From positions 1 through 64,000 of the forward strand of contig JAPEUD010000065.1 in assembly GCA_026026165.1 (NCBI GenBank): DNA of 64,000 bases. Direction: 5' to 3'. Shown one piece after another: positions 1 to 26,350 of the stretch. Position 1 is the stretch's first letter, and every line of letters begins with the position of its first letter. The position numbers and the translations under genes are program-made. Below the pieces are notes generated by a model. It was not told the origin of the DNA. It saw nothing but the letters and a program-made list of their open reading frames with translations, and made no database searches. This stretch comes from Sarea resinae (lineage: Eukaryota).

Positions 1-2850
1 TAGGAAGTTAATTTCTTAGGATTTGTAATTAGGACTAATAGAATTGTAATAGAGAAGAGCTAAGTAGACACTATTAGAGAATAGCTAGCCTCTAAGACCT
101 ACTATAACCTCTAGGTCTTCTTAGGATTTACAAATTTCTACTAAAGATTTATTAAGAAATACTTTATTAAGGCGCTGCTATTAACTAGCCTGCTTGCTAA
201 GAGTAAGAATAGTAAGAAAAGTAGTCTATTCTACTTCTTAGAAGAAGCTAGAGAAGCTTTTAAAGCCCTAAAAGAGGCGTTTACAACAGCGCTAATACTG
301 TGTTACTATAACCTAAAGAGGTAAATATATATAGAAATAAACGCTTCTAGATTTACTGTTATAGCAATTCTATTACAGCTAGTTAAGGATAAAGAGAGTG
401 TCCTAATAGCGTTATAGTAGCACCTAGTTATATACTAGTCTAGAAAGCTTACTAACACTAAATTAAGATATAAAGTGTATAATTTAGAGTTACTAGCTAT
501 TGTTATAGCTTTTAAGCAATAGCGCTACTACTTAGAAAGGGCTAATTACTCTATTAAGGTCTTAACTAACTATGTAAATTTACGCTACTTTATAACTATA
601 AAGGAATTAACCTATTACTAGGCTAGGTAGGCTAAGCAACTAGTAGCGTATAATTTTAAACTTATATATAGAGTAGAGAAAGCTAATCTAGCTAATAGGC
701 TGTTATAGCGCCCTAATTATAAGGTAAAGATATAGGGTCTAGAAGTAATACTTCTTACTCTATAGCAGAAGCTACAGAACCTATATATATTAAAGAGAGA
801 TAGCACTACACTAGTAATTTAAAACCTTCTTACTAGAACAAATAATAAGTATCTAGATAAAATAGGTGCTAATACACCTAAGGATAATATATATCTATAA
901 GAGATTAAAAACCTCTCTAGGCTAGAGAATAACACCTTACCTACTATTAATAAGCGATATAGTTAAGCTAGCTTAACACCTAGCCTAAACCCTATTTATA
1001 ACAATACTAATAAGCTAGTATTAAGAGATAAGTTTAAACACCTCTATATAAGATAAGTAGTGTATAAAGCAGCTGCTAATAAAAGAGTGTATAAGCTGCT
1101 AATAAGCTAGCTGCTTAACGTTATCCTTAGGACTTAGTAAAAAGATCACTTTACTAAGAAGAAGATTAAGAGCATTCCTACTAAAGAGGTTATAAGCTAG
1201 GAAAAGTAGAAAATTAACTCTACTAGCTTGCTGCGCTTAGAAAGTAAGGCTTATATACTGTGTGATACAGCTATTAGGTTAGAAATTATAAGGATAAACT
1301 ATAATAACTTATTTAGTAGCTACTTTAGCACTAAAAGAACAATAAAGGTAATCTAGTGTAAATACTAGTAGATAAATTTAGCTAAAGATATTAAGGAATA
1401 TATTAATAAGTGCAATATATACTAAAGAGTGCAAGTGCCTAGGCATTACTTATATAGCAAACTATAGTTGTTACCTATACTCTACTAGCTATTTAAAGAA
1501 ATTACTATAGATTTTATAATAGGCCTACTACTAAGTAATATAAGAGATTATAAGGCCTGCAATATAATAATAGTAGTAGTTAATCGCTATATAAAGATAG
1601 CGAAATATATTCTATACTAGATAAATCTAAATACTGCTATACTTACAGATATATTTGTTAACGTTATAATAACAGTGTATAGCAACCTAAAGCGTATTGT
1701 ATTAGATAGAGGCAATGTATTTACAAGTAAATTTTAGTTAGCTATATACTATTAAATGCAAATTAAGAACTAGCTTAGCACTACCTTCTACTTACAAATA
1801 GATAGGCAAACTAAGAGGTAAAACTAGATATTAGAACACTACTTACAGTGCTATATAAGCAGCTGCTAGGATAACTAGGCCTTGCTATTACCTATAGCTA
1901 AGTATATATATAATAATAGCATACATTTATCTATAGAAATATCACTCTTCTATACCTTATACAGCTATAACTTAGATCTACAACTTAATATTATAGATAA
2001 TACTATAGAGAGAGAGGTGCTAGTAGTAAATAAGCGCTTTAATATTCTTTAAAGAGTAAGATAAAGACTAGAAGAGGATCTTACTAAGGTATAGTAGTAC
2101 TAAGCTAAGTAGTATAATAAGAAATATAAGCTAATACAATATAAGATAAGTAATAGAGTTATGCTATTAGCGTGTAACCTTAGCACTATACACCTAAGTA
2201 AGAAGTTAAAGCACTACTATATAGGCCTATTTATAGTACTTAACTCTATAGACAAGCAAGCCTACTAGTTATAGTTGCCTAAGGCTTATAGATCTATCTA
2301 TCCTATGTTTTATATATTGCTACTTAAGCGCTACTATAGTAATAGTAATACCTTAGACTAGCACTTAGAGCTAGTTAATAGTTAGGTTAAGTAGATTATT
2401 AAGAAAATCCTAGGCTATAGAGTGCTTAAAAAAGAGTAGCAATATCTAGTTAAGTAGAAAAGAGCTCTAGTAGATAATACTAGCTAAGAACTAGTAGAGC
2501 ACCTAGTAAACGCTATAGACCTAGTATAGAAATATAAGTAGCACTTACTCTCTAACTAGTATAGAGGCCTAGTAAACAAAGAATAGAATGCTAGTATGCT
2601 GTTAACTAAGCCCTAAGGTTAGCTAAAGAAATAACTACTTAATAACAGCGTTATAAAGGCGCTAGCTAAGAGACTAAAAGGCTGCCTAAGAAAGAATCTA
2701 CTTCTTTAAAAGACACCTTTAAGTAGTGTAGAGGTGCTAGTAATAAAGCGCCTGCATAAGAGGCTATAAAAGTATAGGCTAAAGCTATAAGTAATTATAA
2801 AAAGAAGACCTTATAGCTGTCTAAGAAAGGACACGCTGTTATAGCACTAG
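1..2850 (+). pseudogene. Gypsy pol remnant (RT C-term, RNase H, integrase, GPY/F, chromodomain, AT-hook tail) with many RIP-generated stops
   Basis: The motifs lie in frame +1 in canonical order. Stops are TAA/TAG at positions expected to be CAA/CGA/CAG/CGG/TGG. The chromodomain reads ILG..V.K...YLVK*K......S*E..EHL.NA. Confidence 0.9.
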
Positions 2851-3205
2851 TAAAGAGCTGCTATTAGAACTCTTTCTACTTCTTTTACCTATAAAGGTTT
2901 TTAAGTAGTTTTAGTAAGCTAGTAAAGAGGTAAGCCTGTAATACTATAGCATGCTAATAGTGTATAGTCTCTATAAAAGGCTATTAGGTAATAGAGTAAT
3001 AAAGCTATATAGCTATAATACTACAGTTATAAGAGGAGATAAAGTTATAGAAAAGAAAAGTAAAATTAAACTCTAGCGCTATCCTAGCGCGTAGCCTACA
3101 CAATCTAGTATATAAATAGAAATAAAAAGACTACTATCTTATTACCTAACTACTTTGTCCTACCTAACTCTAAAGGCTCTAATTAGCTTAATTGCTAGTA
3201 TTCCT

Positions 3206-3825
3206 TTAAAGCATTATATTATTATTATTATCCTTATCTTTACTCTTCTCTATACAACAAATTAAGGGCAGATTATACTATTAACATAAGTTAGCGCATG
3301 TAATAAGCTAAGAGAGCGCTAGGTAAACTTATAGCAAAGCGTAGGATATTATTAAGCCTTTTAACCTTATTAGCTAAACGCTCTATTACTATTATAGTGT
3401 AAAGGGCTAGGTCTATTAAGTAGCAGTTTATAGCGTTAATATAGGCCTTAATATAGTGTGTATAACGCTTCTATTTAGCTTATAGAGCGCTTATAGCTAG
3501 CTCTTATACAGTGTTATTAGATACTATTACTACTACTATATTAGTAGCCTTTAAAAGCCTATTTAAGCGCTTAAAGAACTTAGTTAGCACCTTATAAAGC
3601 TATAGGTTAGAGCCTATAAAGCGCTAAGCATAAGCTACTATAACTTACCTTACTACACTTCTTATATAGTCTTAAACAACGCTTACACTTTGCTAAAGAG
3701 AAGGTGTATATATATATAATATTAGAAAAAGTCTTAATAGACTTAGAACAATATAGGTAAAGCTTTTAATTAAGCTTTAGCTACTCTTTTAAGCTAGAGT
3801 ACAACTTGTTTACCTTTAAAGGCAT
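3206..3825 (-). pseudogene. RIP-mutated three-exon accessory gene inside the retrotransposon, Cys6 zinc-cluster-like plus helical region plus acidic tail (~168 aa)
   Basis: ATG at 3825. Exons are 3825-3649, 3590-3333 and 3277-3206, each a multiple of 3. Introns read GTAAGT..CTAAC..AG (3648-3591) and ATAAGT(=RIP'd GTAAGT)..GCTAAC..TAG (3332-3278). Exon 1 reads Y-L-Y-C-SKS...-Y-...-K-C-K-R-C-L-R-L-Y-K-K-C. Confidence 0.7.
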
Positions 3826-4242
3826 AGTAGCTTAAGAGCGTAGTATATTTATAGTGTAAGAGAGGTAAGGTATATAGGTATATAAGTATATAGAATATAC
3901 TTAAAAATATAGTGCAAAAGGTTTAATTATATATATATATAGTAGATCACCTATGTTTTATACCTACACCTCTATAGCTAAGTAACCTCTAAGTAATAGA
4001 GAGAATACCTAATATAGATAGTTTAAAGTATTTACCTTATCTATTTATTGCTGCTACCTTAGTATAACGTTTAGTAAATAAAGCAAACTAGATAAAGAAC
4101 TCTCTTTATTATCTATACTAATTTACTAGTTGCAGCAAATAGCAACGCTACTAAGGCGCTAGCAAAATAAAGACTTAACACTATAACATTATATATTGTA
4201 AATAAAGGACTTAAAGAACTAGGCTCTAAAAGAGAAGGTAAT

Positions 4243-4545
4243 TATAAGGGCTACTATTAATAGAGGTGCTATATATAACTTAGTGTAGTATAGAGTAACT
4301 ACTTAGTGTAGTCTAGCAACGTTTAGGTAAGCTAAGTAAGGTTATTATTTATATAGATTAATAGAGGTGCTAGCTATTAGAGCTAGCGTTTAGTGCAATT
4401 ATAAAGTTAGTGCCTACTAGTAATATTAATTGTATTAGTTCTGTATTACTAGAGTAATACTAGTATGCTACAGTGTACTAGCCTATTTAATTGTGCTATT
4501 CCTACCTACTCTACTATAGCTAGAAGTCTAAGAGGTAACCTAACA
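4243..4545 (+). repeat. Putative 3' LTR of the Gypsy element, preceded by a polypurine tract (4228-4238)
   Basis: Purine run AAAAGAGAAGG, then TAAT, then TATAAGG (RIP'd TGTGAGG-like start). The segment ends CCTAACA at 4545, a TG...CA-type terminus. It contains the short internal direct repeat ATTAATAGAGGTGCTA twice. The 5' LTR is not in the window to confirm. Confidence 0.55.
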
Positions 4546-5138
4546 CTTATATACCTATATTTGCAAAAAATATTAAATATCTTAGATTTTTTAGGTGATC
4601 TAAAATTTAAAAATCTCTATATTAAAATAATATTATAGTTTCTATAGGTGCTAAAAATTAAGTAGTGTTAAACTTATAAGACTATTACACTATTCTAGTA
4701 CTATACTACAATCTTTAATACAGTTATAAGTGTTAAACTAGTGAACTAGTCTTAATTCTAATTTACTACAGTTATAGGATATACTCTTATAGCACTAAGG
4801 TAATTAGAAGTAGCTCTAGAGGTACTTAAGTACTTATTTAGCACCTTTCTCTACTTATCTATCTATTCTACTTTCTAATAGCAATTAAAAGGTTATTTAA
4901 TAATCTAGCTCTTAAAAGCACTAAGGAGAAGTACTAAGTAGAATATGTAACTAGATTTTACATAAGCTTTTACCTTAATATTAATTGATTTTTTATAATT
5001 ATTTAAAAAAGGATTATATTATAATTGTTGTTACTAGTACCTTATACTACCTACCTAGCTCTACAGCCTCTGTTTTCTATATTGCGTAAAGTAAAGCACG
5101 CCTTTGCTATATTCCACTGTACTGCCAGATTGCAATCC

Positions 5139-6038
5139 TTACTCAATATCGACCTTTTTGATCTCAACGTACTCCTTGTCTTGCTTTGGTATGCTGATGC
5201 GCAAAACACCATCTTCCATTTTTGCACCGATAGTGTCTGGATCTACAGCAGCTGGGTGTGCCCTGCTTCCCAACCTGACCTTCCTCTCAAAGGCGCCGAT
5301 TTTCCTTTCGTCCATAGCCAGCGTCTTCAAGAATTCCTCGTCGCCGGGTCGATAGATGACGCCTGCAACACTTAACTCACTCTTGTCGGCGTCCCAATTC
5401 ACTCCAACATCCTCCTTCTTTGCACCGGGAAGAGAGACGTGGACAATATATGTATCTTCGGTATCAAAAACGTCAACCGGAGGAGCAAAGTCCTTGCCAT
5501 CTTGATCGTGGATCTGATCGGCACGACCAGTGCTGTCCGCATTGCCCTCCTCTGCCGCGCCGTTGCGTAGGTACGACATGAAGAATTGTGCAAATGGATT
5601 CATGAATGGAGCCATCCCATTCCAACCGTTGTGATTCGTATCTCTGCCGCAGCCGCGGCCTCGATGAAAGGGCCGACCGCGTCGTCCCCCATGCGGCGGC
5701 TGTTCTCCACGATGACCGCCTTCGTATGGCGGGGGAACTTCTTGCCCAGGTGGCCCTTGAGGTGGCCCCTGAGGCCCGGAAAAGCCGTCACCAGGCGGTG
5801 GCGAACCTTCGTGGTGCGGCAAATCTCTAGGTGGTGGGGGACCAAATGGGAAGCCCTGGAAGGGAAACCCTCGTCCCTCTACAGGGCTATCGTGCCTCCC
5901 CCAAGAAAAGCTACTCGGCCCAGGGCGAGCTTGGGGACCGAAAGCGGCAAACATTGGGTGTGACGTTCCTTGATCCTCGATGCTGGCAACAAAGTCCCAG
6001 AAGGGTGCAGACTGATTGAAGTATTCAACAGAAGGCAT
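5139..6038 (-). CDS. HSP20/alpha-crystallin family small heat-shock protein with a Pro/Gly-rich N-terminus
   Basis: C-terminal alpha-crystallin domain: PPVDVFDTEDTYIVHVSLPGAKKEDVGV...ERKIGAFERKVRL...AKMEDGVLRISIPK. First ATG is at 6038 (the track's ORF starts at a TTG). Confidence 0.92.
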   Translation of the reverse strand: MPSVEYFNQSAPFWDFVASIEDQGTSHPMFAAFGPQARPGPSSFSWGRHDSPVEGRGFPFQGFPFGPPPPRDLPHHEGSPPPGDGFSGPQGPPQGPPGQEVPPPYEGGHRGEQPPHGGRRGRPFHRGRGCGRDTNHNGWNGMAPFMNPFAQFFMSYLRNGAAEEGNADSTGRADQIHDQDGKDFAPPVDVFDTEDTYIVHVSLPGAKKEDVGVNWDADKSELSVAGVIYRPGDEEFLKTLAMDERKIGAFERKVRLGSRAHPAAVDPDTIGAKMEDGVLRISIPKQDKEYVEIKKVDIE

Positions 6039-7438
6039 AGTGTTCAAAATCCAGAGATCGTTTTGATGACAAGATAAATGTAAAGTACGTTTGAGATTGC
6101 TTATGGGTAATGTTGGGATGAAGAATAGGACAGGCGAAATTGAAGCAGATTATATACATTAATTATTCCTTCAGGCAACATGGTCTACGTAGGCAAGCGC
6201 GTGGACAGTTTGCCACAACAGTAAAGAGAATGCCGGCAGAAGGTAACATAGAAGTGTGAAGAAGAGACTAGAAAGACAAAGAGTCACACACATAGACTCA
6301 TGACAGGTAGGCTGCCAGAGCCGCGCGTCAGGTTGTGACACGCGGAGACGAACATGGCGAAAATCAGGTTTGGGACTCAGAGTAGGGACTGCTCACGTAT
6401 TAGAATGCTATAGTGGTTGCATGTGATCGCAACTAAGAGGAAACATTAAGTGTCTGACTGCAAAATTGGTAAGGATCAGAATAAGCAAGGACTACTCCTT
6501 AGAGCTAGGGAATAGAGACATTTGAGGCAAACAACAAGGTAGAGTAATAATCAAAGATAGCGAAACAAGAAACAATAGAGAAGTAGGCAGGAGGCGAAAA
6601 CAATACGCAGTAATACTCAGTACGAATACTACTGTACTCTGTAAAATACCTACCTAACCACTACTGCGTACGAAGTACCTTAAGGTATCTTACCACTGTA
6701 TGTGAGGTAGCCTGTTTCGGTTAGCCCGCTTGTTTCGGGCACCCCGCTGTTGATGTTTACTTTAGCAGTACTATGAGTATAAGGTTGTGTGTGCCCTTTA
6801 AAGTGATAAGTCAACGGAAATAAGTGATATGTTCGCTTGATGACAAGTAATCAGTATTCTAGTGTATTCCTTCGGTCTATAGGCTAATAAAAGTCCCTTT
6901 CAGATATTTTATAAGGTTAATACTACTTGCTAAGGTATCTTATTGCTTTAGTTTAATACCTATCTATAAGGATTGTTTTTAGTATTCCTTTTTTACCGTC
7001 CCTCTTTGTCCCTGCTTTAATCTAGTTATGTACTTACCTTGCTCATCTACATACGCTAAGAATTGTGTCTACAGACGACTTCTATTTCTTGCCCTTCTAA
7101 TTGACCAAGGGCTCTTTACAGATAGCTAGAAAATGTGTACACATAGCTATCTATATTTATTGGAATACAACATGTAGACCAATTACAAGCAAGAACTCAA
7201 GGTCCCTTTTGGCTTGATGTCCGACAGTATTGCGATCACTACTTCGTAATTTGTTTACCGGTAGGTCCTTACTCCAGCGTCTGCGATTATCATGTAGCTA
7301 GTAAAGATGGAGCTTGTTCACGGGCCCGGCGCCAGAGATTCCAGGCCGATACGCCAACTTTCACGCGTTCGCAGCCAATTTCCATGACCAGCGCATTTCC
7401 GCACCAATCTCAAGTGGGCCATAGGAGCGCAACCTGAA

Positions 7439-9324: not shown

Positions 9325-11211
9325 ATGACTATAGAAGGAACAACAAATGAATTTTTCTTGGAGAAGAATGGTGAGCAGGTCTCCTTTTCCTCCGTTCGAT
9401 CTCCGGCGTATATCCATCCACCGACTTCGGCTGGGTTGGATAGCCTCTTTGGCGATTTTCTGTTTGAAGATAGCCCAACCAGGCAGCAGGCTCAAGTCGA
9501 TACTACTGCCAAAGGAAATCAGCGACGATGCCTGCAGTTTCCGCCCACGAGTGCGATAAGTGCGGAGGTGCCGACACATTCGTTCCCTTCCAGAACGTCC
9601 CGGATTGCCCCTCAGGATACTCGCACCCCTGGTGATACCGGTTCACCACATGCTTTTGATCTGGGTTGGTCCCCAACTCGCGGACAGAACTCTATATCAA
9701 ATACAGGAGATAAATGCTCAAGGTCAGAATCGGGTCATGGATATCTTCATCCACAAGCGGCAACAAGCGTACGCTCTGAAAACCCAAGCCTCGCTTCACC
9801 ATCTCATATCGACTGGAATCAGCTAGACCTGCCTGTCTTGGATGATTTTCTCTTCTCTCAGCCTTACTCTGTTGATAATATCTGGAGTCCGCAATCTCAA
9901 AAGCAATCCAAGGTGTCGTCTCCAATTGCTACAGCGAAGTTTGCAGAAGATGGAGCTGCTGGGAATTGCGGGCCTTTGTCAACCTTGACCGAGCTGCCTC
10001 TACAGACTCTAAAGGACACCCAGCCAATTCCGATTGATCCCAGGCTCTTGACTTCGAGCGCTCCCGGAAATTTCACAATACCACAGTCTGTCATTACAGG
10101 GCATGGTGTTGAGACATCGGGGTCAACACCTTCGGAAGTGCCAAGTATGCCCATTGAGAGCGGCCAGATTCTTGAAATACAAACCACGTCCCCAGAAAGC
10201 ATCATGGAACTAGACGAGCCGAAAAATGATTTGGAAGAAAGGGAAAAAGGCTGGATCAGAACGAACAAATCAAAGGGAAAATACTCGCGGGCAAAGAAAA
10301 TCGCCGAATTCGATCCTAAGAAGGTATATAATCCTCTCACGGTAGCTCCATTGCAATGGGGAGCTTTCAATTACACGTCCGAAGGTGAGCTTGAAGCAGG
10401 TAGGCCCTATACGGTCAAGCAGATCGAGACATTCCTCTATGAACATCCTTTACATCAGATTCGAGGCCCGAAAGAAAGTGGGCTACGCATCTGGATTCAG
10501 CGTGTCCCCGCCGATTCTGCTAGACGCTATCCTACACAATGGTCTTCCAAATGTCGCTTTAGCAATTGCTGCGAAACGACCAGGAAGATATCCGTTGGTC
10601 ATTTTCGTGTCGCCTTCGACGAGCAGAGCCACAAGAACCAAGGTACGGATCCCCTCATCAATGCAGGGTATGTTCATCTGTTTTGTTTGGAGAAGTACTT
10701 AAACTTACCTCAGTTGATATCTGACCTTAACGTACGTGTTGACAGCAGAATACTTACTGCGGAAGTCGATGGCGTCAATCGAATGAGTTTGGGCCATCGA
10801 CAAGTCAACGCGGAAGCAGTTCGATTCGTGCAAGAATGTGAAGAAGGCTGGATTCCACGTGGTTATGCCCTTCATCCTCGAGGATCAGGTACCACCAATC
10901 ACCAAGGATCGTTGACCTATAAACTTCATGTTGCGAAGATCGATGAAGAACCTCCAAGCAGGCAGAAGGTAAGAGAGAAGAGAGGTGATAAGACAACCTA
11001 CCACAATCATCATCTTGGAAACTTAGACCTCCTGGCTCAGGAGCGTGAGATTAACAAGAATGTAGGCTTCCTGGACATGCCAGAAAAGAGCCGACGCGCT
11101 GCACAAACGAAAGGGAAAAAGAGAAAAGCTCAAGATCTGGTAGAGTTAGACTGTGAGGAGTCGCTGAATAGTGGCCGCTCAGAGACCTCTAAGAAGCTTA
11201 GGAAGAGATAG
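9325..11211 (+). CDS. Uncharacterised 628-aa protein: disordered N-half, C-terminal Cys/His domain, basic NLS-like tail
   Basis: Long intact ORF. Ordered C-half WIQRVPADSARRYP..KCRF..C..GHFRVAFDE..AGYVHLFCLE; tail KGKKRK/KKLRKR. Upstream exons are possible. Confidence 0.8.
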   Translation: MTIEGTTNEFFLEKNGEQVSFSSVRSPAYIHPPTSAGLDSLFGDFLFEDSPTRQQAQVDTTAKGNQRRCLQFPPTSAISAEVPTHSFPSRTSRIAPQDTRTPGDTGSPHAFDLGWSPTRGQNSISNTGDKCSRSESGHGYLHPQAATSVRSENPSLASPSHIDWNQLDLPVLDDFLFSQPYSVDNIWSPQSQKQSKVSSPIATAKFAEDGAAGNCGPLSTLTELPLQTLKDTQPIPIDPRLLTSSAPGNFTIPQSVITGHGVETSGSTPSEVPSMPIESGQILEIQTTSPESIMELDEPKNDLEEREKGWIRTNKSKGKYSRAKKIAEFDPKKVYNPLTVAPLQWGAFNYTSEGELEAGRPYTVKQIETFLYEHPLHQIRGPKESGLRIWIQRVPADSARRYPTQWSSKCRFSNCCETTRKISVGHFRVAFDEQSHKNQGTDPLINAGYVHLFCLEKYLNLPQLISDLNVRVDSRILTAEVDGVNRMSLGHRQVNAEAVRFVQECEEGWIPRGYALHPRGSGTTNHQGSLTYKLHVAKIDEEPPSRQKVREKRGDKTTYHNHHLGNLDLLAQEREINKNVGFLDMPEKSRRAAQTKGKKRKAQDLVELDCEESLNSGRSETSKKLRKR

Positions 11212-11410
11212 TCTTACTCTTAGCTTCTAGGAAGGTGGTATATTTATCACATAGTTTGTTGTTGGCCTAATAGTTTGTATATCGATCTATAGAAGGTATT
11301 CTGAAAATAGCCAAACACTATTATTTCGAATGCTCATGATTTACGTGGCTTTGTACTTCTTCAGACTCAGAAATTGGCTTGAAAGGTTGTATCTATTAAT
11401 TGTGATATAC

Positions 11411-12935
11411 TTATTCAAGTCTTCTAGCCACCCAATGTGAAGCTATGTATGTATTTTGTAGCATGCTTCTTGGATCCTGTATGTAACCACTCTCCCCGCC
11501 GTGTGCCATATGCCTCTCTATCTTGAACCCACTACTTTCAATCAAGAGGATAACTTCTTCGTCGGTGAACTCTACACTGCCAGCACCCGCGATTCCTTTC
11601 TGCTGTCTGTTCCGTTTCGTCTCAGGCTGTTCCTCTCCAGCGGTTTCCTTTGGACCGAAATTGCTGTCTTCGAAGTGCCAAAGCAGAGGGCCAAAATTTA
11701 TCCAGATACCCTGAACCTTCAGACAATTTCGAATCGTAGATATATAATTCATCAGATTTGGTGCCGTGTCAACAAAAAACACTGTCGCCACAGCATCATA
11801 ATAACCTCGGTGTGACGTGTCGCTATAGAGTAGAGCAAAGTCGGCCGCAGACATGCTCAACCTTTGGGAAGCCGGCGTTATCGTATGACTTGAAGCTTCA
11901 CCTAGAGCTGTTCCTGGATGAATGTCTGGTATCATGACTCTTTGTAACTGATGTTCACGAGATACGTGGTTCGAAAAGCTGAGTGCCCAAGGAAAAAGTT
12001 CCATCCTTTCAGTGGCACTTGTACGATTAAGAACAAAATTACTGGCCATGAGCTGGTGGTATGAGATCTCGTTGCCTTCCGTCCAAAAGCCCGCTGCACA
12101 TATCTCGAAAACGAGCCTTCCTAGACCGGCTCCAGGCACCAGAACTTTGATTGCCCCTCTATCTTGACAGGAGAGAAATTCGTGCTCCAGATCGGTAAGT
12201 ATAGGGCCATAACAGGCTGCTCTCTCTTCAGCACCTTCTGCACTCCAATCACGATAGAACTGTCGAATCGTGGAGCGCGCCTTGTCGAGATCAGAAGGAG
12301 TGGCTGTTCCACGCCAGTCCCGTGATTCCTCTGTCGGGACTGCATCAAGTCCAAACCCCTCGAGACCAGCTTCAAGTATTGCAGAAGCGATGTCCGCGTT
12401 TTTGTCGATGGCGTCGTCAACCCGCTCGAATGTGTCCAGGATAGAAAAGGGAGGGGCCGCAAGTACTTGCCATTGTGCTGAAGGAAGGGCGTAGAAGTTT
12501 TGACGTCGCCGGTGAGTCACGTTCAAGTGGGCTACCTTGCGATATTGACTGCGAGCATGAAAACTTAAGCAGTGCAACCTATACTACCTGGTAGGTAGGA
12601 TTCCAAGTTGTGCAGGCTAATCAAAAATCCAGTAAGGAAACGACGGGCAAAAAGACTGTCTGATTCCGCCCTCAAGCACGAGCGGTCAATGCTATAGGTA
12701 CGGGACTAGGACCATCTTACTCGCTGAACAACAGCACACAAAGTGAACGTAGGAACGGTCGAGCTGAAACAAGGAGGAGACACATCGATTTGAGGTGACA
12801 CTGACAAGGAGATTTCACCTACCAGAACGAATCCAATGCAGCAAATACAACTCGCTTCTCCTCTGGATCCGAAAGCGGATCAAATTCTCCACTCCACTCT
12901 CCTTCTCCCTTCCCGCCTCCTTCTAGTAATGACAT
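11411..12935 (-). CDS. N2227-like SAM-dependent methyltransferase (carnosine N-methyltransferase family)
   Basis: Motifs IRQFYRDWSAEG, VLVPGAGLGRL, EGNEISYHQL, TVFFVDTAPN and WINFGPLLWHF. First exon MSLLEG...DPEEKRVVFAALDSF starts at ATG 12935, followed by a ~270-nt intron. Confidence 0.92.
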
Positions 12936-13194
12936 CCCGATGCACAAGTAGTACTCTTCAGGGTAGTTGAAGGGTGGGCTCGAGATCGATTGCCGAATGT
13001 CTACCTCTACTACTTTACCTACCTACCGTACCTACCTTAGGATCTGTCGGGACTAGGCCGGAGATAAGCTGCCGCGCGCTTCTTACCTTATCAATTTCGC
13101 TCCGGAAGAAGACGCATACTACTACTTCAAGGACCTCCGAGCCAGCAAAATTTGCCTTTTAGTCAACTAATATATTCCACGATACCTTTTGGAA

Positions 13195-13713
13195 ATGTCA
13201 TTCAACGCTCACAGCGACCGGCCAACGAAGCGATCAACTTCCATGCCACCAGTTCAGATTTCCTTCCCTCTTCCCAGTGCCCCCCACACGACGATTCACC
13301 TGCACCTCACTATTTTAACGAGCTGTGTATTGCTCTTCCTCACCACCGCTACAGGCGAATCAAGTGGTCCTTGTGCCTTAGGAAGTTTTGTATACTCGAT
13401 GCCTGATGTATGTCGCCGAGCCCGTCGACAATCACGTAAGGCTAATGTTCTACAGCGGACGTGTTCGACGAATGCTATCCACACGCCGTTATATGTCCGA
13501 GAGTCATCCCTCGACTTCACGACTCGCATAGCAAGGATACTAGCAAGCAGGGTTGGGAAGCCCATCTACGTGGGTAACAGCATCTCACTTTCGAGTACCG
13601 GTTTGGGGGGTACTGTAGAGGAAGAGATGGAGAGTCTGGGGAAAGTGGTTGAACTGACCCTCCGCGAGATCGAGAGGGCCAGCAATGGTGGCACTCCCTT
13701 GAAGAGCCAGTGA
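13195..13713 (+). CDS. Proteasome assembly chaperone 4 (PAC4/Poc4)-like protein
   Basis: FPLP..PHT.IHLHLT, LGSFVYSMP, HTPLY, DFTTRIARILA.R..KPIYVG and VEEEME match the fungal PAC4 pattern. One in-frame intron at ~13408-13455. Divergent from the N2227 gene by ~260 bp. Confidence 0.75.
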   Translation: MSFNAHSDRPTKRSTSMPPVQISFPLPSAPHTTIHLHLTILTSCVLLFLTTATGESSGPCALGSFVYSMPDVCRRARRQSRKANVLQRTCSTNAIHTPLYVRESSLDFTTRIARILASRVGKPIYVGNSISLSSTGLGGTVEEEMESLGKVVELTLREIERASNGGTPLKSQ

Positions 13714-13820
13714 TTCATCGCTCCCATTCTATCGTCCAGCACAAGCTTAAGCTTCATGTGTTCGAAGCGAGAAACATCCATACAAGAGCGCAACTTAGGG
13801 TGGACTCCAGATCTGGCAAA

Positions 13821-14794
13821 TTATAATTTGCTTCCAGCCAAATGTTTTCCACCGTCCAGAACGACGACAGCCCCGTTGACATGGCTGGCGGCCCTGCTAC
13901 ACAGGTAAACAACTGTGCCCGCAATATCCTCCCCCCTACCCAACCTCTTCGTTGGATTGGACGCAGCCATAGCTTCCTGGCCGCCTGTCAGCTCCAAGAG
14001 TCCGTTCGACATTTTGGATGGAAAAAAGCCAGGAGCTATAGCATTGCAGAGGATGTGTCGCGGTCCAAGCTCAACGGCAAGATTCTTAGTGAGATGTATC
14101 ACGGCTGCTTTTGAAGCTGAATAACCGAAAGTCGCATTCTCTCCCAAGGATCCGATCCCGATTCCGGCGACGGAAGCCGTAATGATCACACGGGAAGGAT
14201 CTTCTGCTGTTGCGTTCTTCTGCAATAATGGCGCAAACCTTTCCAATTACCATCAGCTTCGCTATGATATAAATCAAGCGGAGGGTATACATCATAAAGA
14301 AAGATCTCACAATCGTATTGTATTGAAGACACTCTTCACATTCAAGTCCATCACCTTCCCGAAAGCAGTGTCCGAGTGAGTGTCAAACTTCTCGCCCCAG
14401 GTAGCTCCTGCATTGGCGAAAAGAATATCGACATGATCGGTCGTTTGCTCTACTTCCGCCACCAATCTCTCCACTTCACTGAACTTTGCAATGTCCGCAG
14501 GTATAGGAATTGCCCGCGCGCCCTTGCGGATGTTCGGAAGGGCATTGAGGGCGGCGCAAGCTTCTTCGCATGCTTTGGCCTTGCGGGAAGTGATATAAAC
14601 CTTAGATGCGCCGGCTTGCAGGTAGCTATAAATTGAAGATCGAGTCAGTCCGCCGAGAACATTTGTAGTTTGCCCGTGGGAAGATACCCAGATGCCGCGT
14701 GTAAACCAAGTCCACGAGAGCCTCCCGTTACTACAATCACCTTGCCGTCAAGGGAGAAAATGCTTTCGAAATCCTTGAGCTCTGTCTCCGCCAT
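13821..14794 (-). CDS. Short-chain dehydrogenase/reductase (RhlG/FabG-like)
   Basis: VVTGGSRGLG Rossmann motif, FANAGATWG, YSASK catalytic motif, NAIAPGFFPSKM and VNGAVVVLDGG. Two introns. Confidence 0.93.
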
Positions 14795-15190
14795 GGTAAC
14801 GATGTAGATCAGAAGACAAAACACGTCCCAGTATAGCACGATGCTTCGAAATACGTCGCGGTGAGCTTCAGTCTTCCAGAAGGTTTGACTTGAAGCTCTA
14901 GCTCGCTCCTTTTCTGTTCACAAGCGCTTACTCACAACTACATTGCTGAAATGCATCAGCCTGCGAGCAATCCTACACCCACCAGATCGTGCCTCGGTCC
15001 GGAGTTACGTTCGGGCCAGTTGGCACCTTGTCCTTTACAGGGTAGGTACCTACAGTACCTACTGCTTAGTACGGAGTACTCCGGGGTAGGTAGGTACAGA
15101 GGTAATGCAAGGTACATGGTAGCCTGCTGAGGTACCTACAAGGAACTAAACTCGATCTGCAGATTAGTATTCTGACCTTCAAAATCTTCT

Positions 15191-15226
15191 AACGTGCCTG
15201 GAAAGCTGTGGCTTTCCAGGCACGTT
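15191..15226. repeat. Perfect 16-bp inverted repeat with a 4-nt loop
   Basis: AACGTGCCTGGAAAGC-tgtg-GCTTTCCAGGCACGTT. Confidence 0.9.
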
Positions 15227-16450
15227 GTCCTCAAACTACTGTACGATTCGAAGTGCAAAGTTCGTTTTTTCAATTGCGTCATTGTTTTAATATGTGAATT
15301 CCCTGTCTCATGACGGAATGGGGGCCTTCAGCTCTTCCTTATAAGTGGGCCAAACCCGACCTTCTTTTCAATTCTCGCTTTTAGGTACACTAGCAAACAT
15401 GTTTACCACAACAGCGGCTATCAGCATATGCTGATAAACATCCGAGAGGCTATAGAAGGAGATGTGAGGTAGCAGACTGCCTTTCTGGGCCCGAAGGAAT
15501 ATCTGGGTCTAATAATACGATACTCTTACATACGCAGTCACTGCGCTACTATCATCCGTGGAATTGCTTTGACAATGTCGAATGCGTCCGAGCCCCTGAG
15601 CTTGGGATTTGCTGAGCCGTACACCCTGGAAGTGACCACCATTTTAAAGCAAAGCTCAAGATTGAATGTTTCGGATTGGAGTCAAAGTCTGGGCTGGTTT
15701 GCATGGCTTGCCGCACCACACAACCGCCTTATTACTTCAGCTGGACTCAACAACAAATGATAATCAATCACCGGATCTACTAAGACCTATTTATATGGGA
15801 AGCTGGCTCAACCTCTTACGATCTCCGGCTGCCACTCCGATACGTCCTGACTGTATGTTAGCTCAAGGTTAACATATGCAATTCTAGGGTAAATAGGTAA
15901 TCTCACTTGCGTCTGCAACCACGCTCGGTGACATAGCGCTAGAGTAGTCTACAAATGCACGGTATAACATTACTCTAAAAGTTTTGGACTGCTATCTCAT
16001 GCACCAGAACCGGGATATGTGAAGACCATACCTCCTATACTGGGATTGTCACACATTGAATTCCACTAATCGATTCTATTAAGCCTAAGCTGTGCATTGC
16101 TGGATAAGCTGTATACTATAAGATAGCAGCTCCATCACAGTCTCCATATTTGAGTGTGTAAACAGGTCTTGCGGACTTCTGAGTACCTAATCAGCATATG
16201 TCATTGTCTCTGGCCCGAGCGAGATCCGGAGCAGGCATTAGAGCAAGAAACTCAGCTTACTTTAGCAATGGATTCTGGCTATCCATAGATCCGATAGGTT
16301 TTGATACTGCATCAGACTCCTCTGGTAACGCCCTCAAGCTATCCATGTAAGATCGTAGACTCTGCAGGAGCTCTGTACCATTGGCTTTATTCGGAGCAGT
16401 CTCGTTCTGCGCCTGGCACAGGCTCGTCGCGGTGTCTCGGAAGCAGCAGT

Positions 16451-17452
16451 CTACCCTGCACTCTGGATCACGTCATCTAAAAGTCCGCCTAACAGTCTCC
16501 AGCTTAATTGCCCACTGGCTAAATCCTGGTAATCGTCCTCTGCCGCTCTTCGGCACACCTCCCGTATCGCATGCTCATTGACCCTGACCACAAATCCTCT
16601 CTCCGTGATCATAGTCACAGATGCGCTCTGGGAGTCCCTTCCCACTAAGCCCTCTGCTCTCAAAAGCTTCACTAACCATTCGTCTGAGACTCCTCCCCCA
16701 ACCGCGTCGGTCACCTGGTGAATGTCTATCCAGGACTTGGAGCTTAGAGTTTCTCTCACGATTTCAAGGGCCATCTTTCGTCTTGTAAACTCTTCCTCCA
16801 CCAGTCTCTTCTCTTCGCCTCTTCTTTCCTCCCGCTCGATCAATTTTTTCCTCTCCAGCTGCCGTGCAAATTCCGCTCTCCGTCTCCTCTCTTCTAGTAT
16901 CTCACTTTGAAGAGCTTCCTCGACTTCCCTTTCTCGCGCTCTTTGCGCTTCACCTTGAGAACGAACAAATTCATGATAAGCCCGCCGTTGGTCGCGGCGG
17001 GCAAGAGATGCGGCTTTCTTTTTCCCAATCTCTCGAGCGCGAGCATTGATTCGAGGTTCTTGTGCTGGGTGTAAGAGACCTCGTTGAGGGTCTGCCGGAA
17101 CTGTACCAGGATCATTGACGGGGTCGAAGTTAACGTCCCCTCGGTTTTCTACCCAGTTGAGGGGCAGATCGTTCTCTCTAGTCGCCGGCCCTAGCTCGCC
17201 AACTTCCTCCAGATCCTCATCGTCAGCTTCAACTAGGTCCTCGGACTGATATTGTGGAGAGACGGTGTTTCCTTCTTGAAGTGAAGACTCGTCGGCCCTT
17301 TGCCGAAAGTAGCGGAGTGCTAGATAGAGAATAGAGCAGAGAACAATCGAACGAAAGACGTCCTGCGCCAGCGACGTTCCGGGTGATGCGAACGGTAATA
17401 GTAGGTTCAGGGCGTATTGAAAGCTCAGTAATGAGCTCTTAATTATCTCCAT
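16451..17452 (-). CDS. Membrane-anchored coiled-coil protein, DDRGK1/UFBP1-like
   Basis: N-terminal hydrophobic segments, an acidic linker, IGKKKA..LARRDQRRAY and an E/R coiled coil. The C-terminal winged-helix-like region ends TMITERGFVVRV, compared with the DDRGK motif GV.DDRGKFIY. Confidence 0.65.
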   Translation of the reverse strand: MEIIKSSLLSFQYALNLLLPFASPGTSLAQDVFRSIVLCSILYLALRYFRQRADESSLQEGNTVSPQYQSEDLVEADDEDLEEVGELGPATRENDLPLNWVENRGDVNFDPVNDPGTVPADPQRGLLHPAQEPRINARAREIGKKKAASLARRDQRRAYHEFVRSQGEAQRAREREVEEALQSEILEERRRRAEFARQLERKKLIEREERRGEEKRLVEEEFTRRKMALEIVRETLSSKSWIDIHQVTDAVGGGVSDEWLVKLLRAEGLVGRDSQSASVTMITERGFVVRVNEHAIREVCRRAAEDDYQDLASGQLSWRLLGGLLDDVIQSAG

Positions 17453-17775
17453 TACGATGCAAGATCAGGACGCAGTGAGAGCTCACTCCCACACTTGAAA
17501 GCTATCCGGCCATGTCAAGACCGTCGTTCTTGTTTTTGAAGCAGTGGGTGTTTGGAAGCCATATTCATCCGTGGGAAGGGAAATGGCCATCTGTACATAC
17601 AGCTTACGAGAATGCCCCTCGCACAAAATAAGCGCACGCCAATTGTTAATCTCGTCGCTTAAGGTGACGACATTAGTTGCCCGAGGTAGGTAGTCAGTCA
17701 CCTACTTCATATCTAAGGAAGACCAGACAGCTCAAGGTAAAGGACTTCCCACCATCATGCTGCTACAAGAACAAA

Positions 17776-18570
17776 ATGGCAATAGAGGGATCAAGTAAGC
17801 CACACTTCCCTCACTTATGTCGGCTCTCTAGTGTTAATGTTCATGATCTAGCAGAACACGTCATCCACTCTTCATTCGACCGAGTGATCACCCGCAAAGG
17901 CGATACCGCTGTCAAATCTGGACCAGACGTACGAGCTTCAGAAGCGATTACTCTGCAATTCATTGCTCAGAATACGGACATCCCAGTCCCGAGGATTCTC
18001 AGCGAGCCTGTAACTCGTGACGGTATTACTAGCTTCACAATGGAATATGTCGATGGTCAACCTCTACAGGATCTATGGCCTGATCTTACAGACGAGCATA
18101 AATTGACTATCCAAAGCCAGTTGAGGAAAATTGTCAATGAGCTCAGAGCAATCAAAGGGGCTTGCATCGGTGCCTTAAATCAGGGCACAGCGATTGATTG
18201 TCGAAGAACTATATATGAAGGCGGCCCGTTCCTAGACGAAAGCGAATTCAACAATTTTATTGTCTCGGACATGGTTACTGCAGTTCCAGAGATCTTCCGT
18301 GATATGGTCAGGCATAGATTACGCGCAGATCATGCCATTGTTTTCACACATGGTGACTTTACGCCACGCAACATAATGGTCAAGGATGGTCTTGTGGCCG
18401 CTGTCATCGACTGGGAATATGCCGGATTTTATCCAGAGTATTGGGAATACGTCAAGAGCCTCCGCTCATCTTTGGGGTTTCAAGACTTTATGCACAACGT
18501 CTTTCCGGAGTCATACGAGGAGGAATTTGTCACAGATCAATTTCTTTCTCGCTTTCGCCGTCATCAATAG
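17776..18570 (+). CDS. Aminoglycoside phosphotransferase (APH)/kinase-like protein, intronless
   Basis: EAITLQFIAQNTDIPVPR, MEYVDG, FTHGDFTPRNIMV, IDWEYAGFYPEYWEY. Confidence 0.9.
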   Translation: MAIEGSSKPHFPHLCRLSSVNVHDLAEHVIHSSFDRVITRKGDTAVKSGPDVRASEAITLQFIAQNTDIPVPRILSEPVTRDGITSFTMEYVDGQPLQDLWPDLTDEHKLTIQSQLRKIVNELRAIKGACIGALNQGTAIDCRRTIYEGGPFLDESEFNNFIVSDMVTAVPEIFRDMVRHRLRADHAIVFTHGDFTPRNIMVKDGLVAAVIDWEYAGFYPEYWEYVKSLRSSLGFQDFMHNVFPESYEEEFVTDQFLSRFRRHQ

Positions 18571-18585
18571 GTACAACGTGTCTTA

Positions 18586-19005
18586 TCACTCATCGGATGC
18601 TTCTGCGACTTTATCCACCATTCTGTCAACAGCGCTCTCAACTGCTTGCGGTGTGATCCATCCATATCTCTGCATAGCGGTCAGAGCATCGCCTATCCAA
18701 TTTTGACAGTTCCATGATCCCTCTCGGTTGTTTATATGAACGGCCTTGAGGCAAGCATCGATGTCTGCTTTTGATACCGCTCTTGGGATCGGTACCGGAA
18801 TCTCTCCATTGAAATGCTGACTAGCGTATGGAATCTGATTTCGGCGCTCGTCATACTCGAAGAATCCCGCTCCACCTACGGCATGGTAGAGGGATGACGA
18901 TTGGTCATTAAACTTGACGAAAAGAGCTGTATGCCGTGTAGCTTGTAAATCTACCGGATCGCCTGTGTACACGATGATGCTGAGGGCCGCGCTGGTGATA
19001 GACAT
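18586..19005 (-). CDS. Small permuted papain-like (PPPDE/DUF6540-type) protein
   Basis: RHTALFV..., YHAVGG and WNCQNWIGDAL give His followed by an NC catalytic-type motif. Intronless. Confidence 0.7.
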   Translation of the reverse strand: MSITSAALSIIVYTGDPVDLQATRHTALFVKFNDQSSSLYHAVGGAGFFEYDERRNQIPYASQHFNGEIPVPIPRAVSKADIDACLKAVHINNREGSWNCQNWIGDALTAMQRYGWITPQAVESAVDRMVDKVAEASDE

Positions 19006-20008
19006 CAAAAGTGATAGAAACGCTGGCAGCTGCCGACGATTAGACCAATCCTTGCACAAGAGACGAGGGCTTACCTAGATAGAGACCAGATCGAGATCGT
19101 GCTGAAATACTTTAGATGAAGTTTCCTAGATCTTATTTGCCGCAGTACAGAGAGGGGTTGTGCCAACCCATAGGCTAGGCCAACACCCCAGTGCAAATCC
19201 CGATCAGCCTTATCCATACTTGATGGTCGTGTATGAAGTACTCCGGAGGATATCGCATGAATCCCTGCAATCTTCATAGTAGATCATGTTTTCGCTTTGC
19301 GCCCGGATGTTGTTCCAGAGTACCGCTACCAAGGCTAAGCCTCACGCCAGCCACCTGCGGGTTTTTCCAGTCTCAAGCAAGAATTTCGACGATTCGATAC
19401 ATAGCTATGGCGGGTGACAAGAAGATTGAACACACCTCTAGACCCTTGCGCTCAGGTGGGTGTGTTCAAACTTTGAGCTAGGGACTGTAGATTGCTTGTG
19501 GGGAGCGCTGCGCTATAAAGTAGGCAAATAGGCATGACCTGGACGAGCCGGGCGGGTTCTAGTAGTCTTTTTGGCGCACGTAGGAACAGGTTTACCTAGT
19601 TATAGGACCTTATATTGCTTTAGCTCCTTATTTGCATGGCACTTTATAAACATGTTGTATGTATACTAGTAGCAAAGGTATCTAAGTACACTAGTATAGC
19701 ATAAGATGCAGAGAAGATATATATACATATATATATATCCAGAAGTAATAGTTTTATAAATGCAACAGTAAACCCCTTCTTCTCACGGCATAAGCAAACA
19801 TAGACAAACTTTTTATTGAGGGCCTAAGTATAATAATTGAGAGCTCCTTCTATGTTTAAATACTAGTTAGGAGTAGAAGCGAAGCTATAGGTAAGCGTTA
19901 TACGCCCAGAAGCACTGCAGATACAATAGCAGTTCTGCGTTATAGAAGCGAGGGCAGACGTATCTGTGTTGGGCCACCATACCACACTTTCTCAGAAAGT
20001 CTGGCTGC

Positions 20009-21401
20009 TCACATCCCGAAAACCCTCCAACCTTCAATTGCGATTGTTATAATCAAACTCCATGCGTTCAAAGTCTTCCTAGTCGATCTCCGGTCGCCAA
20101 CCGCAATGCTCTGGACAGCAATTTCGTTGATCGCTCCAGAATATGTGGAGTACACCCGGCTAGTATCAAATAAACGATGGAGCTCGGAGGACGATGTCGC
20201 GAGAATATCGGTGGATCGACCCTCAGGACAGAAGATAACGCCAAAACCACCTCCGGAAGGAATTATGAATGTCGAAGTTTGATCGTCAAAAGCTGTGGAA
20301 AGAGCATCAGCACCTATGCCGGAAATGAGTTCTCGGGACCGGCAAGGACGTACCATAGCTATAGGCATCAGGACAGACCATTTTAGCAGCCTGGCTATAG
20401 GCGCTCGGTTGGCAGGAGTTGGGGCTATCATATTCCCCAGTGCAGCAATCACTCGGTTGATCATATTTGGCGCAAGCGGAATAGCACGGATCAAAGCCTG
20501 GCCTCTCAATGCTGCTATCTGGATACGAGTAAACCCCATCTGATGGTTCGGTTGGTATTTCAAGCTGCAAATCCCACGGACACCACTGCGACACGTCGCT
20601 AAAGCTTATGCTATCGTCGAACGGGAGAGGGAAAGACGAATTGGTTCCCAACAAAGCAGCGAAGTCCGAATATCCGTCGTATGGATCCCAGTCCGTGCCC
20701 GCGAGGAGCCCAGCCGTACCGATACAGATGGGATTGGTAAGGTTGGGTGGTATATCTGCAATGGATGTGTTTCCAGCAGCTATAGAGACAATAGCTAAAG
20801 GAAGGTTGTAGCCGTCGACCAGAGAGATATCATAAAATGTTTGCCCAGTTGAGGAGGCAAGCGTGAACTCGGCCAATGTCACAGGCGTGTTGCCCTTGGA
20901 TGAGAATGGTCAGCGCTATATAACTAGCAGCATTCCTTGTCAATAGAGCAGGGACCTTACGGTGACCATGCAGTTCACGATCCCATTACAGTCTCCTGTC
21001 GCACACGCCTGGCCTCCACCGTTTATCCCACCATTGCCAAAAGGCCCAGTCCCATCCGTGTTAAAGCTGCAATTGGTTCTCCCCCAAACCCTGCCTTGCC
21101 AATCCGAACCCACTGTCAGAGACATATTTTCACCAGACTTTAGCTGAAAACCGCTCATTTCTGGAGCTGTTCCAGCGTCAGTTGTGATCCCAGGATAGAT
21201 GATTTCTCCACAGTTGTTCCAGATCTGAAGCGGTACAGTATTTGAATCTCTACCCTCTATACGTGAAGAGCGTGGCTTCGGTCCATCTCGAACGTCCAGA
21301 GCCAGGCTTAAATGTCCCAAAAGCAATGGAAAGGAATACAAAGCGTAGAAAAGTACAGGCCATCTCCGGCAATAATTAGAATAGGAATGTTTTATCGTCA
21401 T
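20009..21401 (-). CDS. Thaumatin/osmotin-like protein, secreted or membrane-anchored
   Basis: NNCGEIIYPG, WQGRVWGRTNCSF, CATGDC, TLAEF, FYDISLVDGYNLP and CPDAYSY/AFDDQTSTF. Hydrophobic N- and C-termini. Two introns. Confidence 0.93.
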
Positions 21402-25230: not shown

Positions 25231-26299
25231 TAGATGCAGACAAGAGAAGAGCGTGAGATGTCGGCGAGCGAGAAATTGTGTTGATCACTGGTGAGACAAT
25301 TCGGACCCTGGGCAGGTAAGTAAGGTAAGGTAGGTAGGTACCTAGGTAAGGTACCTTAGGCAAGTGGGTAGCCCTGGTAATCTCGAATGACTGGGGCGGC
25401 TAATATTAGCGAACGAGGTTGCGCGGAAAGCCTAAGATAGAACCAGAGTCGACGCTGATGATGATCGAACGATTATATGTAACAGGATTTCCGGGCTCAA
25501 TCTGAAAGTTGGATCGCATAGGTTTGAAGGTGTAGTGTCGCTCAGAGGATTGTTTGCTGTATTATAAATTGGGGGGCCGGTAGGAGAGTCTCATCTGGGG
25601 GTGAATCGGGCCAGGAAGGCTGAGGATATTCCGGTACTGCAGTCATTCGCACTAATTGAGCCTAAGGTTGAAACTTCAGGTTTGTTTATTGACAGGAGGG
25701 CAACTAACCTGGGAACTATGAACAATAAGGTTGCCCGTATGTACTTCATATGAAGTACCAAGTCCCAAGCGGTAGGCGAGAATGCAGCATACCCTCAGGT
25801 AAAGATACTCCTATTGTAGGTACGGAATACGAAGTTCAGTTCCTGCTTGAGGCGCTCTCTACCACCAATACTACGATTGAAGAATTCCCAAAACTGAATC
25901 ATCAAGTACTACCTATCTTAGCAAGGTACAGTGATATCTTACTGTCGAAATTCTGGGTTCTACTTCTAATCATGGGTTTGTAACAAGGATAAAATGCCTG
26001 CGGTGAGAGAATGATAGGTACTTTCGTCTCAGATACTAGTGTAGAAGAAAGTATTCGTTTCTTTGTACATACGAAATTGCCTTTTGACCTACTGCGCAGT
26101 ATGTACCTAGTAGAATTAACAATGCCTACCCTCCTCTCGTACCTATCTTAGCACCCCACAATATCAGCATTAGAGCATAGCCCACTTGCAGTGATGCACT
26201 GCCCCACCAGCAGCATACCTACCTACCTACCTACTTATCTTACTTACCCTTACGTCAGTTACCTGTGGTGCGACAAGCACCTATAGCCGGAAGAACGAG

Positions 26300-26300
<1 letters not shown>

Positions 26301-26350
<50 letters not shown>
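26301..26350. repeat. (GAT)n microsatellite, ~17 units
   Basis: Directly visible. Confidence 0.95.

Follow-up and report, generated by a model that had tools for sequence, protein, structure and literature searches.

Four AT-hook-compatible motifs behind the integrase chromodomain in the relic of a fungal chromovirus

To our knowledge, the choice of insertion sites is understood in detail for only a few long terminal repeat (LTR) retrotransposons, and in chromoviruses, of which the fungal MAGGY group is an example, the chromodomain is the single established determinant that we know of. Here, we analyzed a 64-kb window (the whole stretch of DNA studied, positions 1 to 64,000 of contig JAPEUD010000065.1 of Sarea resinae, forward strand), which opens with the remains of a Ty3/Gypsy chromovirus inactivated by repeat-induced point mutation (RIP). 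Behind the chromodomain of its integrase lies a tail that, judged from the sequence and from intact relatives, probably once encoded a real array of AT-hooks. All coordinates refer to this window, and the pol frame denotes frame 1 of the forward strand, translated through with an X at each stop codon.

Chromovirus chromodomains read histone marks and steer integration, as stated in the passages of PMC5053271 that deal with them and cite Gao et al. 2008. The window element shares with described chromoviruses the order of the pol domains, namely RT-RNaseH, the H2C2 zinc finger, the integrase core, SH3_Tf2-1 and, probably, the C-terminal chromodomain. It differs from them, together with about 10% of its relatives, in adding one to four putative AT-hooks after the chromodomain.

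The closest analogy of mechanism is LEDGF/p75. This protein pairs a PWWP histone-mark reader with AT-hooks and positions lentiviral integrase on chromatin (PMC5053271, where this factor is treated), so that a mark reader combined with minor-groove hooks follows the same two-part logic. In contrast, LEDGF/p75 is a separate host protein which acts via an integrase-binding domain and reads marks of active chromatin, whereas here both modules would reside on the integrase itself, with a chromodomain as the reader. Pfam scans of the relic and of 12 relatives detected neither a PWWP nor an integrase-binding domain, and LEDGF/p75 is an analogy of mechanism only.

AT-hooks are also found in host chromatin proteins. 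In Neurospora, CHAP, a member of the HCHC deacetylase complex, may use its AT-hooks to bind AT-rich heterochromatic DNA directly, according to the part of PMC10666030 that discusses it. This and the steering of integration by chromodomains had been given as background in the original prediction, which had read four AT-hooks into the tail, and both statements are borne out by the relevant parts of these two sources. CHAP and HMGA share with the proposed tail several spaced RGRP hooks. However, they are host chromatin proteins and not transposon-encoded, and the tail in the window has neither zinc fingers nor an acidic tail, so the likeness is one of motif only.

Transposon-encoded recombinases with an AT-hook-like motif have been described as well. 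Tc1/mariner-family transposases, such as Sleeping Beauty and Dici of Diutina catenulata, carry a GRPR motif of this kind (PMC13469147; PMC7827188). In these enzymes, one hook is placed between the helix-turn-helix halves of the paired DNA-binding domain and helps to bind the transposon's own ends. The putative array of the window element, by contrast, is situated at the C-terminus of the integrase, after the chromodomain, in an LTR retrotransposon. A full-text literature search, which has most subscription journals outside its scope and whose results were mostly judged from listings, returned no account of AT-hooks in an LTR-retrotransposon integrase.

Hook-compatible motifs and their intact counterparts

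The four codon strings start at 2608, 2668, 2746 and 2803, exactly as they had been quoted. They lie in the pol frame, the same frame as RT_RNaseH, Integrase_H2C2 and SH3_Tf2-1, and begin 23 codons beyond the chromodomain. The measured distances of 20, 26 and 19 codons agree with the claimed spacing of about 19–26 codons. Hook spacing of 19–26 residues resembles that of HMGA. All four strings fit the pattern [RK]-G-R-P-[RK]-[RK] when only C>T and G>A changes are reversed. Hook 1 (2608–2631, AAG CCC TAA GGT TAG CTA AAG AAA) fits KPRGRPKK with five transitions, while hook 2 (2668–2694, AAG AGA CTA AAA GGC TGC CTA AGA AAG) needs only three to fit KRP[KR]GRPRK. Hook 3 (2746–2772, AAG CGC CTG CAT AAG AGG CTA TAA AAG) fits KRPRGRPRK with seven transitions, two of them in one codon. 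Hook 4 (2803–2829, AGA AGA CCT TAT AGC TGT CTA AGA AAG) fits RRP?GRPRK with five and retains a literal Pro at position 3. All of these motifs are on the forward strand, and the AT-hook call applies to the ancestral sequence, not to the present one.

The strongest support for the AT-hook reading is comparative and comes from relatives in which the motif appears intact. A phmmer search with the translation of nt 1261–2910 against 1.84 billion representative proteins returned 13,161 proteins at E ≤ 0.001 (best 9.1e-68). All are integrase-chromodomain proteins, and their alignments cover residues 2–430 of the query and stop at the chromodomain. The closer relatives with a name belong to the fungi Lasallia, Aspergillus, Histoplasma, Fusarium, Hirsutella and Pseudozyma, and fish and plants are the sources of more distant ones. 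A cluster look-up of ten matches returned no taxon labels, and the only name attached to them was 'hypothetical protein'. Among the 150 best matches, 12 carry a basic-flanked RGRP after the chromodomain. They include the top match, P0002, whose C-terminus reads ...HPVRRRGRPSKAKA. Every one of these 12 passes Pfam Chromo. Searches around P0002 added hooks in 7 of 116 and 10 of 44 proteins, and a search around P0152 added five hook-bearing proteins among 62, one of them labelled Fusarium beomiforme.

A hidden Markov model built from the set itself located the chromodomain in 300 of 314 proteins. A survey of relatives for chromodomains followed by AT-hook tails had been proposed, and it proved productive: 31 of these 300 proteins carry at least one hook, in the form of a basic-flanked [RKP]GRP, in the tail. 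The hook density amounts to 34 in 10,009 tail residues, compared with 2 in 270,791 residues upstream; since the sets overlap in ancestry and include near-copies, these figures characterise the sample and are no estimate of how common hooks are in nature. Furthermore, the residue after [RK]GR is Pro in 34 of 65 tail occurrences but in only 5 of 101 upstream. This enrichment indicates that GRP is specific and no by-product of a basic composition. P0050 and P0282 possess three hooks each, and the four units proposed for the window would form the largest array among the relatives examined here. In proteins with a single hook, it usually sits within the last ~5–15 residues (exceptions are P0052, P0287 and P0290). 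The C-terminus of P0017, ...RGRPKKDPLLSQS, resembles the window's ..LRKNLLL*, ..LRKDTLL* and ..LKK*LL also beyond the core. The tail is best read as a decayed array with intact RGRP at the same place in relatives; the exact ancestral residues spelled out in the original prediction are reconstructions and should be taken as approximate.

Related elements were also present in metagenomes. Of 71 related loci, 49 have a chromodomain, and by the strict rule hooks occur only in L001, L002 and L030, while L028 shows a QGRP hook by eye. The contigs of L002, L028 and L030 consist of the element alone, with the same 107–155 nt repeat at both ends, and L001 lacks such a repeat; insertion flanks are present in none of these four contigs. 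A scan of metagenome contigs with the degenerate purine/pyrimidine pattern of hook 2 gave no match. An ESM Atlas search with the three-hook tail of P0050 returned only generic SH3/Chromo clusters, all scoring <0.9.

In the window itself, places compatible with the six-residue pattern [RK]GRP[RK][RK] number 13 over all six frames. Five of them are in frame 1 of positions 1–4300, and four of these five fall inside the tail, within 74 codons. Random controls of 120 codons, 20,000 of them from a Markov model and 20,000 from codon resampling, never contained four compatible sites. This pattern was chosen after the motifs had been seen; therefore, an independent scoring matrix was built from 25 distinct hooks of relatives and applied to 10,016 positions of 1–5040 in six frames, with the best ancestor taken for each codon. 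Motif 3 ranked first, motif 2 second and motif 4 14th of the 10,016 positions. The clustering is real and beyond chance, although the scoring is permissive. The four units escaped detection by Tandem Repeats Finder, and a MAFFT alignment of them had a mean column identity of 57%, which is not treated as significant in AT-rich DNA.

The relic and its decay

Positions 1 to about 3100 of the window are the 3′ half of a dead, RIP-inactivated Ty3/Gypsy chromovirus of a filamentous fungus. The relic pol (1–2538, forward strand), truncated by the start of the window, was recognized from Pfam, phmmer and stop counts. Its frame 1 comprises RT_RNaseH (nt 241–651), Integrase_H2C2 (nt 1267–1434), the integrase core, placed by alignment to relatives, and SH3_Tf2-1 (nt 2155–2334). 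The Pfam scores of RT_RNaseH_2 (66.4 bits), RT_RNaseH (59 bits) and SH3_Tf2-1 (38.6 bits) all exceed their cut-offs; that of Integrase_H2C2, 22.8 bits, is slightly under its cut-off of 25.5. The probable decayed chromodomain (2395–2538) reaches 17.4 bits with Pfam Chromo (E 0.0042), below the cut-off of 25.1. Alignments to chromodomain-bearing relatives extend through this region, and three stop codons occupy the usual aromatic positions of the domain, each of them, by eye, consistent with a former Trp. In positions 1–2538, stops make up 53 of 846 codons in frame 1 (density 0.063), compared with 112 and 139 stops in the other two frames (0.133 and 0.164).

The GC content is 0.29–0.31 in the first ~5 kb and about 0.49 in the rest of the window. 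RIP is customarily called with thresholds of about 0.89 for TpA/ApT and 1.03 for (CpA+TpG)/(ApC+GpT). These indices are 2.03 and 0.40 for positions 1–4300, as opposed to 0.80 and 1.21 for 6000–64000. By GC content and RIP indices, the AT-rich RIP-type block spans 1–5040 and consists of the element relic and ~2 kb of further non-coding AT-rich DNA. A six-frame Pfam scan of 3001–5102 gave no match, and no direct repeats of ≥60 nt were found within 1–5040. Because the window begins inside pol, the 5′ LTR is absent and the LTR ends are undefined. A purine-rich run at 3031–3060 (forward strand), noted by eye only, may be the polypurine tract before the 3′ LTR.

To judge how plausible each reversal is, the relic was aligned to its 60 best matches, and the 301 columns in which ≥60% of them agree served as a calibration. 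The window keeps the consensus residue in 164 of these conserved pol columns and has changed it in 137, so the 20 transitions needed over the 34 hook codons fit the damage of this copy. Where the window has CTA, the aligned consensus is Pro in 13 columns and Leu in 13, and AGC stands for Gly in six of seven columns. Hooks 2 and 4 are therefore well supported. TGT corresponds to Arg once and Lys once. TAG corresponds to Trp (8 columns), Gln (5), Arg (1) and Met (1), and TAA to Arg, Gln and Trp, once each. Hook 1 is plausible, although both of its stops would have to derive from Arg codons. Taken together, the four reconstructed hooks of the original prediction hold up unevenly: motifs 2 and 4 stand, while motifs 1 and 3 need rare or unseen reversals. 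Intact hooks are coded GGT CGA CCA CGA in L028 and GGG CGA CCA CGC in L030, and under RIP such codons would give the TAG/TGY CTA TAA/AGA pattern of the window.

Other copies of the element were sought in public sequencing runs. One run (X1) contains many copies, roughly 50 copy-equivalents by our estimate from the summed depth, and a snow-metagenome run (X2) one related copy, whereas no sequence from runs X3 and X4 matched onto the stretch. At the variant places of X1, 77 of 84 differences are transitions, with 33 A>G and 25 T>C compared with 12 G>A, 7 C>T and 7 transversions; this predominance of transitions towards G or C supports the identification of RIP. The summed depth of other copies drops from thousands to <1,000 past about 3083. 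In X2, a contig pair on 2323–2748 is about 89–94% alike, and all 26 differences are transitions, 25 of them T>C or A>G. This pair represents an environmental copy of the same family that has been mutated less.

Three changes in other copies are visible within the tail, and all three raise its basicity. A>G at 2678 turns Lys into Arg inside hook 2 (AAA>AGA, 2677–2679), A>G at 2801 likewise gives AGA in place of AAA, an Arg codon immediately ahead of hook 4, and the TAA that follows hook 1 (2632–2634) is CGA, through changes at 2632–2633. These observations draw on a table of variant places of which 40 of 90 are listed. For the X2 copy, the list includes every A>G change (11) and 13 of the 14 T>C changes. 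The in-frame TAA and TAG of hook 1 are untouched by them, which indicates that this copy is itself mutated there. Moreover, reversals occur at only 58 places, against the ~170/1,001 RIP changes expected by our estimate, which assumes an ancestral GC content of 0.49–0.53, as in intact relatives, compared with 0.323 now. Because 40 of 90 places are listed, the X2 copy is also mutated and reversals are few relative to expectation, the evidence of other copies on the core codons is weak either way and neither confirms nor refutes the hooks.

The summed depth in X1 was also uneven along the 3′ part of the element. It amounts to ~1,300–1,900 over 2608–2800, compared with 10,000–28,000 over the chromodomain and over 2846–2879, with no joints reported. 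This dip may reflect a greater RIP divergence of a formerly GC-rich region or many copies that differ there.

Alternative readings of the tail

Several observations, to which those on the tree and on two stop codons below belong as well, weigh against an ancestral AT-hook array. None of the four motifs retains a literal G-R-P core, the present peptides being KP*G*LKK, KRLKGCLRK, KRLHKRL*K and RRPYSCLRK. Among the 40 of 90 variant places listed, no change in other copies restores Pro or Arg at a hook core. In the calibration, TAT never stands for Arg (0 of 19) and AAG never for Gly (0 of 11), and only 2 of 18 columns with TAA or TAG go back to Arg. Hook 3 is the weakest of the four for this reason, since its seven changes include an AAG from GGG. 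Compatibility with bare GRP by T>C and A>G changes is a permissive rule; it applies to 1.7–2.8% of codon positions in every frame and, being so common, means little by itself. With the scoring matrix, motif 1 remained outside the top 15, and several out-of-frame positions scored close to the motifs (25–28 versus 24–31). Among the 12 relatives with intact hooks, Pfam AT_hook (PF02178) gave 11 bits in P0017, against a cut-off of 17.4, and was unlisted in the other 11.

The alternative that survives best is that the tail was an ordinary basic extension, acting as a nuclear localisation signal or an unspecific DNA clamp, with GRP being incidental or an artefact of reversing RIP. Any hooks would then serve import or general affinity and not the targeting of AT-rich DNA. 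C-terminal nuclear localisation signals are known in the yeast Ty1 integrase. A short run of Lys/Arg that lacks GRP, for instance KSRRRKA, AKRKRK or RKRKR, forms the C-terminus of most relatives. The median tail is 18 residues long, and the literal tail of the window has 24 Lys/Arg in 100 codons.

The distribution of hooks over the tree is also in keeping with a basic extension. A FastTree phylogeny was computed from 285 rows, using the 400 residues that end at the chromodomain; 16 proteins with too little upstream sequence, one of them hook-bearing, had been dropped. The 30 hook-bearing rows need 20 state changes, at least 14 of which are forced by well-supported branches, as would be expected if a few substitutions turn a basic tail into RGRP. 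Shuffled labels need 29.0 changes on average, and in none of 500 shuffles was the number as low as 20. The hooks are thus phylogenetically clustered yet have been gained or lost many times, and since the tree is unrooted and quick, gains are indistinguishable from losses. The nearest rows to the window have plain Lys/Arg tails without hooks. The window row itself, biased by RIP and with an end branch of 1.41, cannot be placed reliably.

On the other hand, the excess of Pro after [RK]GR in tails argues that GRP was selected for. The three spaced hooks of P0050 and P0282 and the four evenly spaced units of the window also resemble multivalent DNA binders. Import or clamp roles can coexist with hooks. 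We regard a merely basic extension as distinctly less likely than an ancestral hook array.

A second alternative places a genuine stop soon after the chromodomain, at the TAG at 2557 or at 2584. Positions 2608–2829 would then be untranslated sequence between pol and the polypurine tract, and the hook-like codons would be due to chance or left over from an earlier frame that was longer. Among the contigs of public runs, nearly all other copies have CAG in place of the TAG at 2539. The TAGs at 2557 and 2584, in contrast, appear common to most copies; many contigs cover them, and no reversal is found among the 40 of 90 variant places listed. The top match P0002 ends 12 residues past its chromodomain, and the distance from the EHL of the chromodomain to the end is, by eye, 29 residues both in P0002 and in the window up to 2584. 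This match in length is weak, because frame 1 contains a stop every ~13 codons (83 in 1,100). Tails of 149 residues that carry several hooks occur among relatives as well, and a tail ending at 2557 would consist of six non-basic residues, unlike any relative examined.

The stop densities bear on the same question. In 2539–2838, frame 1 has 9 stops in 100 codons (0.09), slightly above the 0.063 of pol, compared with 17 of 99 (0.172) and 11 of 99 (0.111) in the other two frames. A sharp rise in frame 1 is seen only after 2838, to 13 of 64 (0.203) in 2839–3030. All four hook-compatible sites over the tail are in the pol frame, as opposed to one (2786) in the other five frames. Taken together, these points make an early stop improbable, and it is the less likely of the two alternatives.

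Because the stop density jumps there and the hooks of relatives sit near the C-terminus, we place the probable end of the pol frame at about 2842–2853 (forward strand), where TAG CAC TAG TAA directly follows hook 4. Forward frame 2 of 2839–3030 has only 4 stops in 63 codons, which could be due to chance or mark a short, shifted frame ahead of the purine-rich run. A fifth candidate hook at 2926–2937 (AGA GGT AAG CCT, RGKP, after TAG TAA) was rejected, as the stop density of frame 1 is 0.20 there and no basic residues follow the Pro.

Possible role of the hooks and surrounding features of the window

Our favoured explanation, a RIP-killed chromovirus with a four-unit AT-hook tail after its chromodomain, is on the whole somewhat better than an even proposition. 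The pol frame would have continued for ~100 codons beyond the chromodomain through four tandem units of 19–26 codons, each containing one AT-hook of roughly the form [KR]-R-P-x-G-R-P-[RK]-K, and would have stopped a few codons after the fourth hook. RIP would then have converted the GC-rich Arg, Gly and Pro codons to Leu, Cys, Ser, Tyr and stop codons. In this arrangement, the end of the integrase would combine a histone-mark reader, the chromodomain, with an HMGA-like multivalent minor-groove binder. The hooks may bind AT-rich DNA and thereby supplement chromodomain-guided integration with a preference for DNA shape, or simply with additional DNA affinity or nuclear import. That the putative hooks biased the choice of targets towards AT-rich DNA is a tentative suggestion, which we consider possible but not the likelier outcome.

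If such a bias existed, the integrase would carry a two-part address in cis, composed of the H3K9-methylated nucleosome and a narrow AT-rich minor groove, and would parallel LEDGF/p75 or CHAP within a single protein. In RIP-active fungi, new insertions would be channelled into the AT-rich isochores made by RIP. The host's defence would then build a safe harbour for the element, which would help to explain the growth of AT-rich isochores and bear on that of the AT-rich, gene-poor compartments of fungal genomes. Hook-bearing families are accordingly predicted to insert into more AT-rich DNA than their hook-less sisters. As the copy in the window is dead, its value lies in pointing to a wider pattern, seen in about one relative in ten.

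The proteins P0285–P0290 and P0292 are chromodomain integrases that end in ...R(R/G)RGRPRRR, and P0285–P0290 are labelled as cyprinid fish (Labeo, Cirrhinus). Since cyprinid fish elements carry RGRP tails, the architecture of chromodomain plus hook extends beyond fungi. We know of no RIP in fish. A RIP-specific adaptation is unlikely, because the hooks are patchy (at least 14 gains or losses), most tails are plain Lys/Arg and fish elements have RGRP; the fish hooks would fit a general preference for AT-rich or satellite DNA. The broadest proposal, in which chromoviruses as far apart as those of fungi and fish have acquired AT-hook arrays again and again as a targeting module, which in RIP-active fungi funnels insertions into RIP-made AT-rich isochores, appears doubtful.

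Outside the element, an open reading frame (ORF) of 628 residues at 9325–11211 (forward strand) has no Pfam family above noise (best E 0.069). GC-rich tandem direct repeats occur at 56038–56295 (2 x 129 nt, 78% identity) and at 57379–57828 (3 x about 141 nt, 67–79% identity), both unrelated to the hook finding. A second small RIP-like patch is located at 6501–7000, with TpA/ApT of 1.78, (CpA+TpG)/(ApC+GpT) of 0.64 and a GC content of 0.376, and the surrounding DNA is normal. On the reverse strand, an ORF of 299 residues at 5139–6038 encodes a Gly/Pro-rich N-terminal half and a C-terminal Hsp20/alpha-crystallin domain (47 bits). About 100 nt separate the 3′ end of this ORF from the RIP-type block, so that the mutated DNA ends sharply at the gene.

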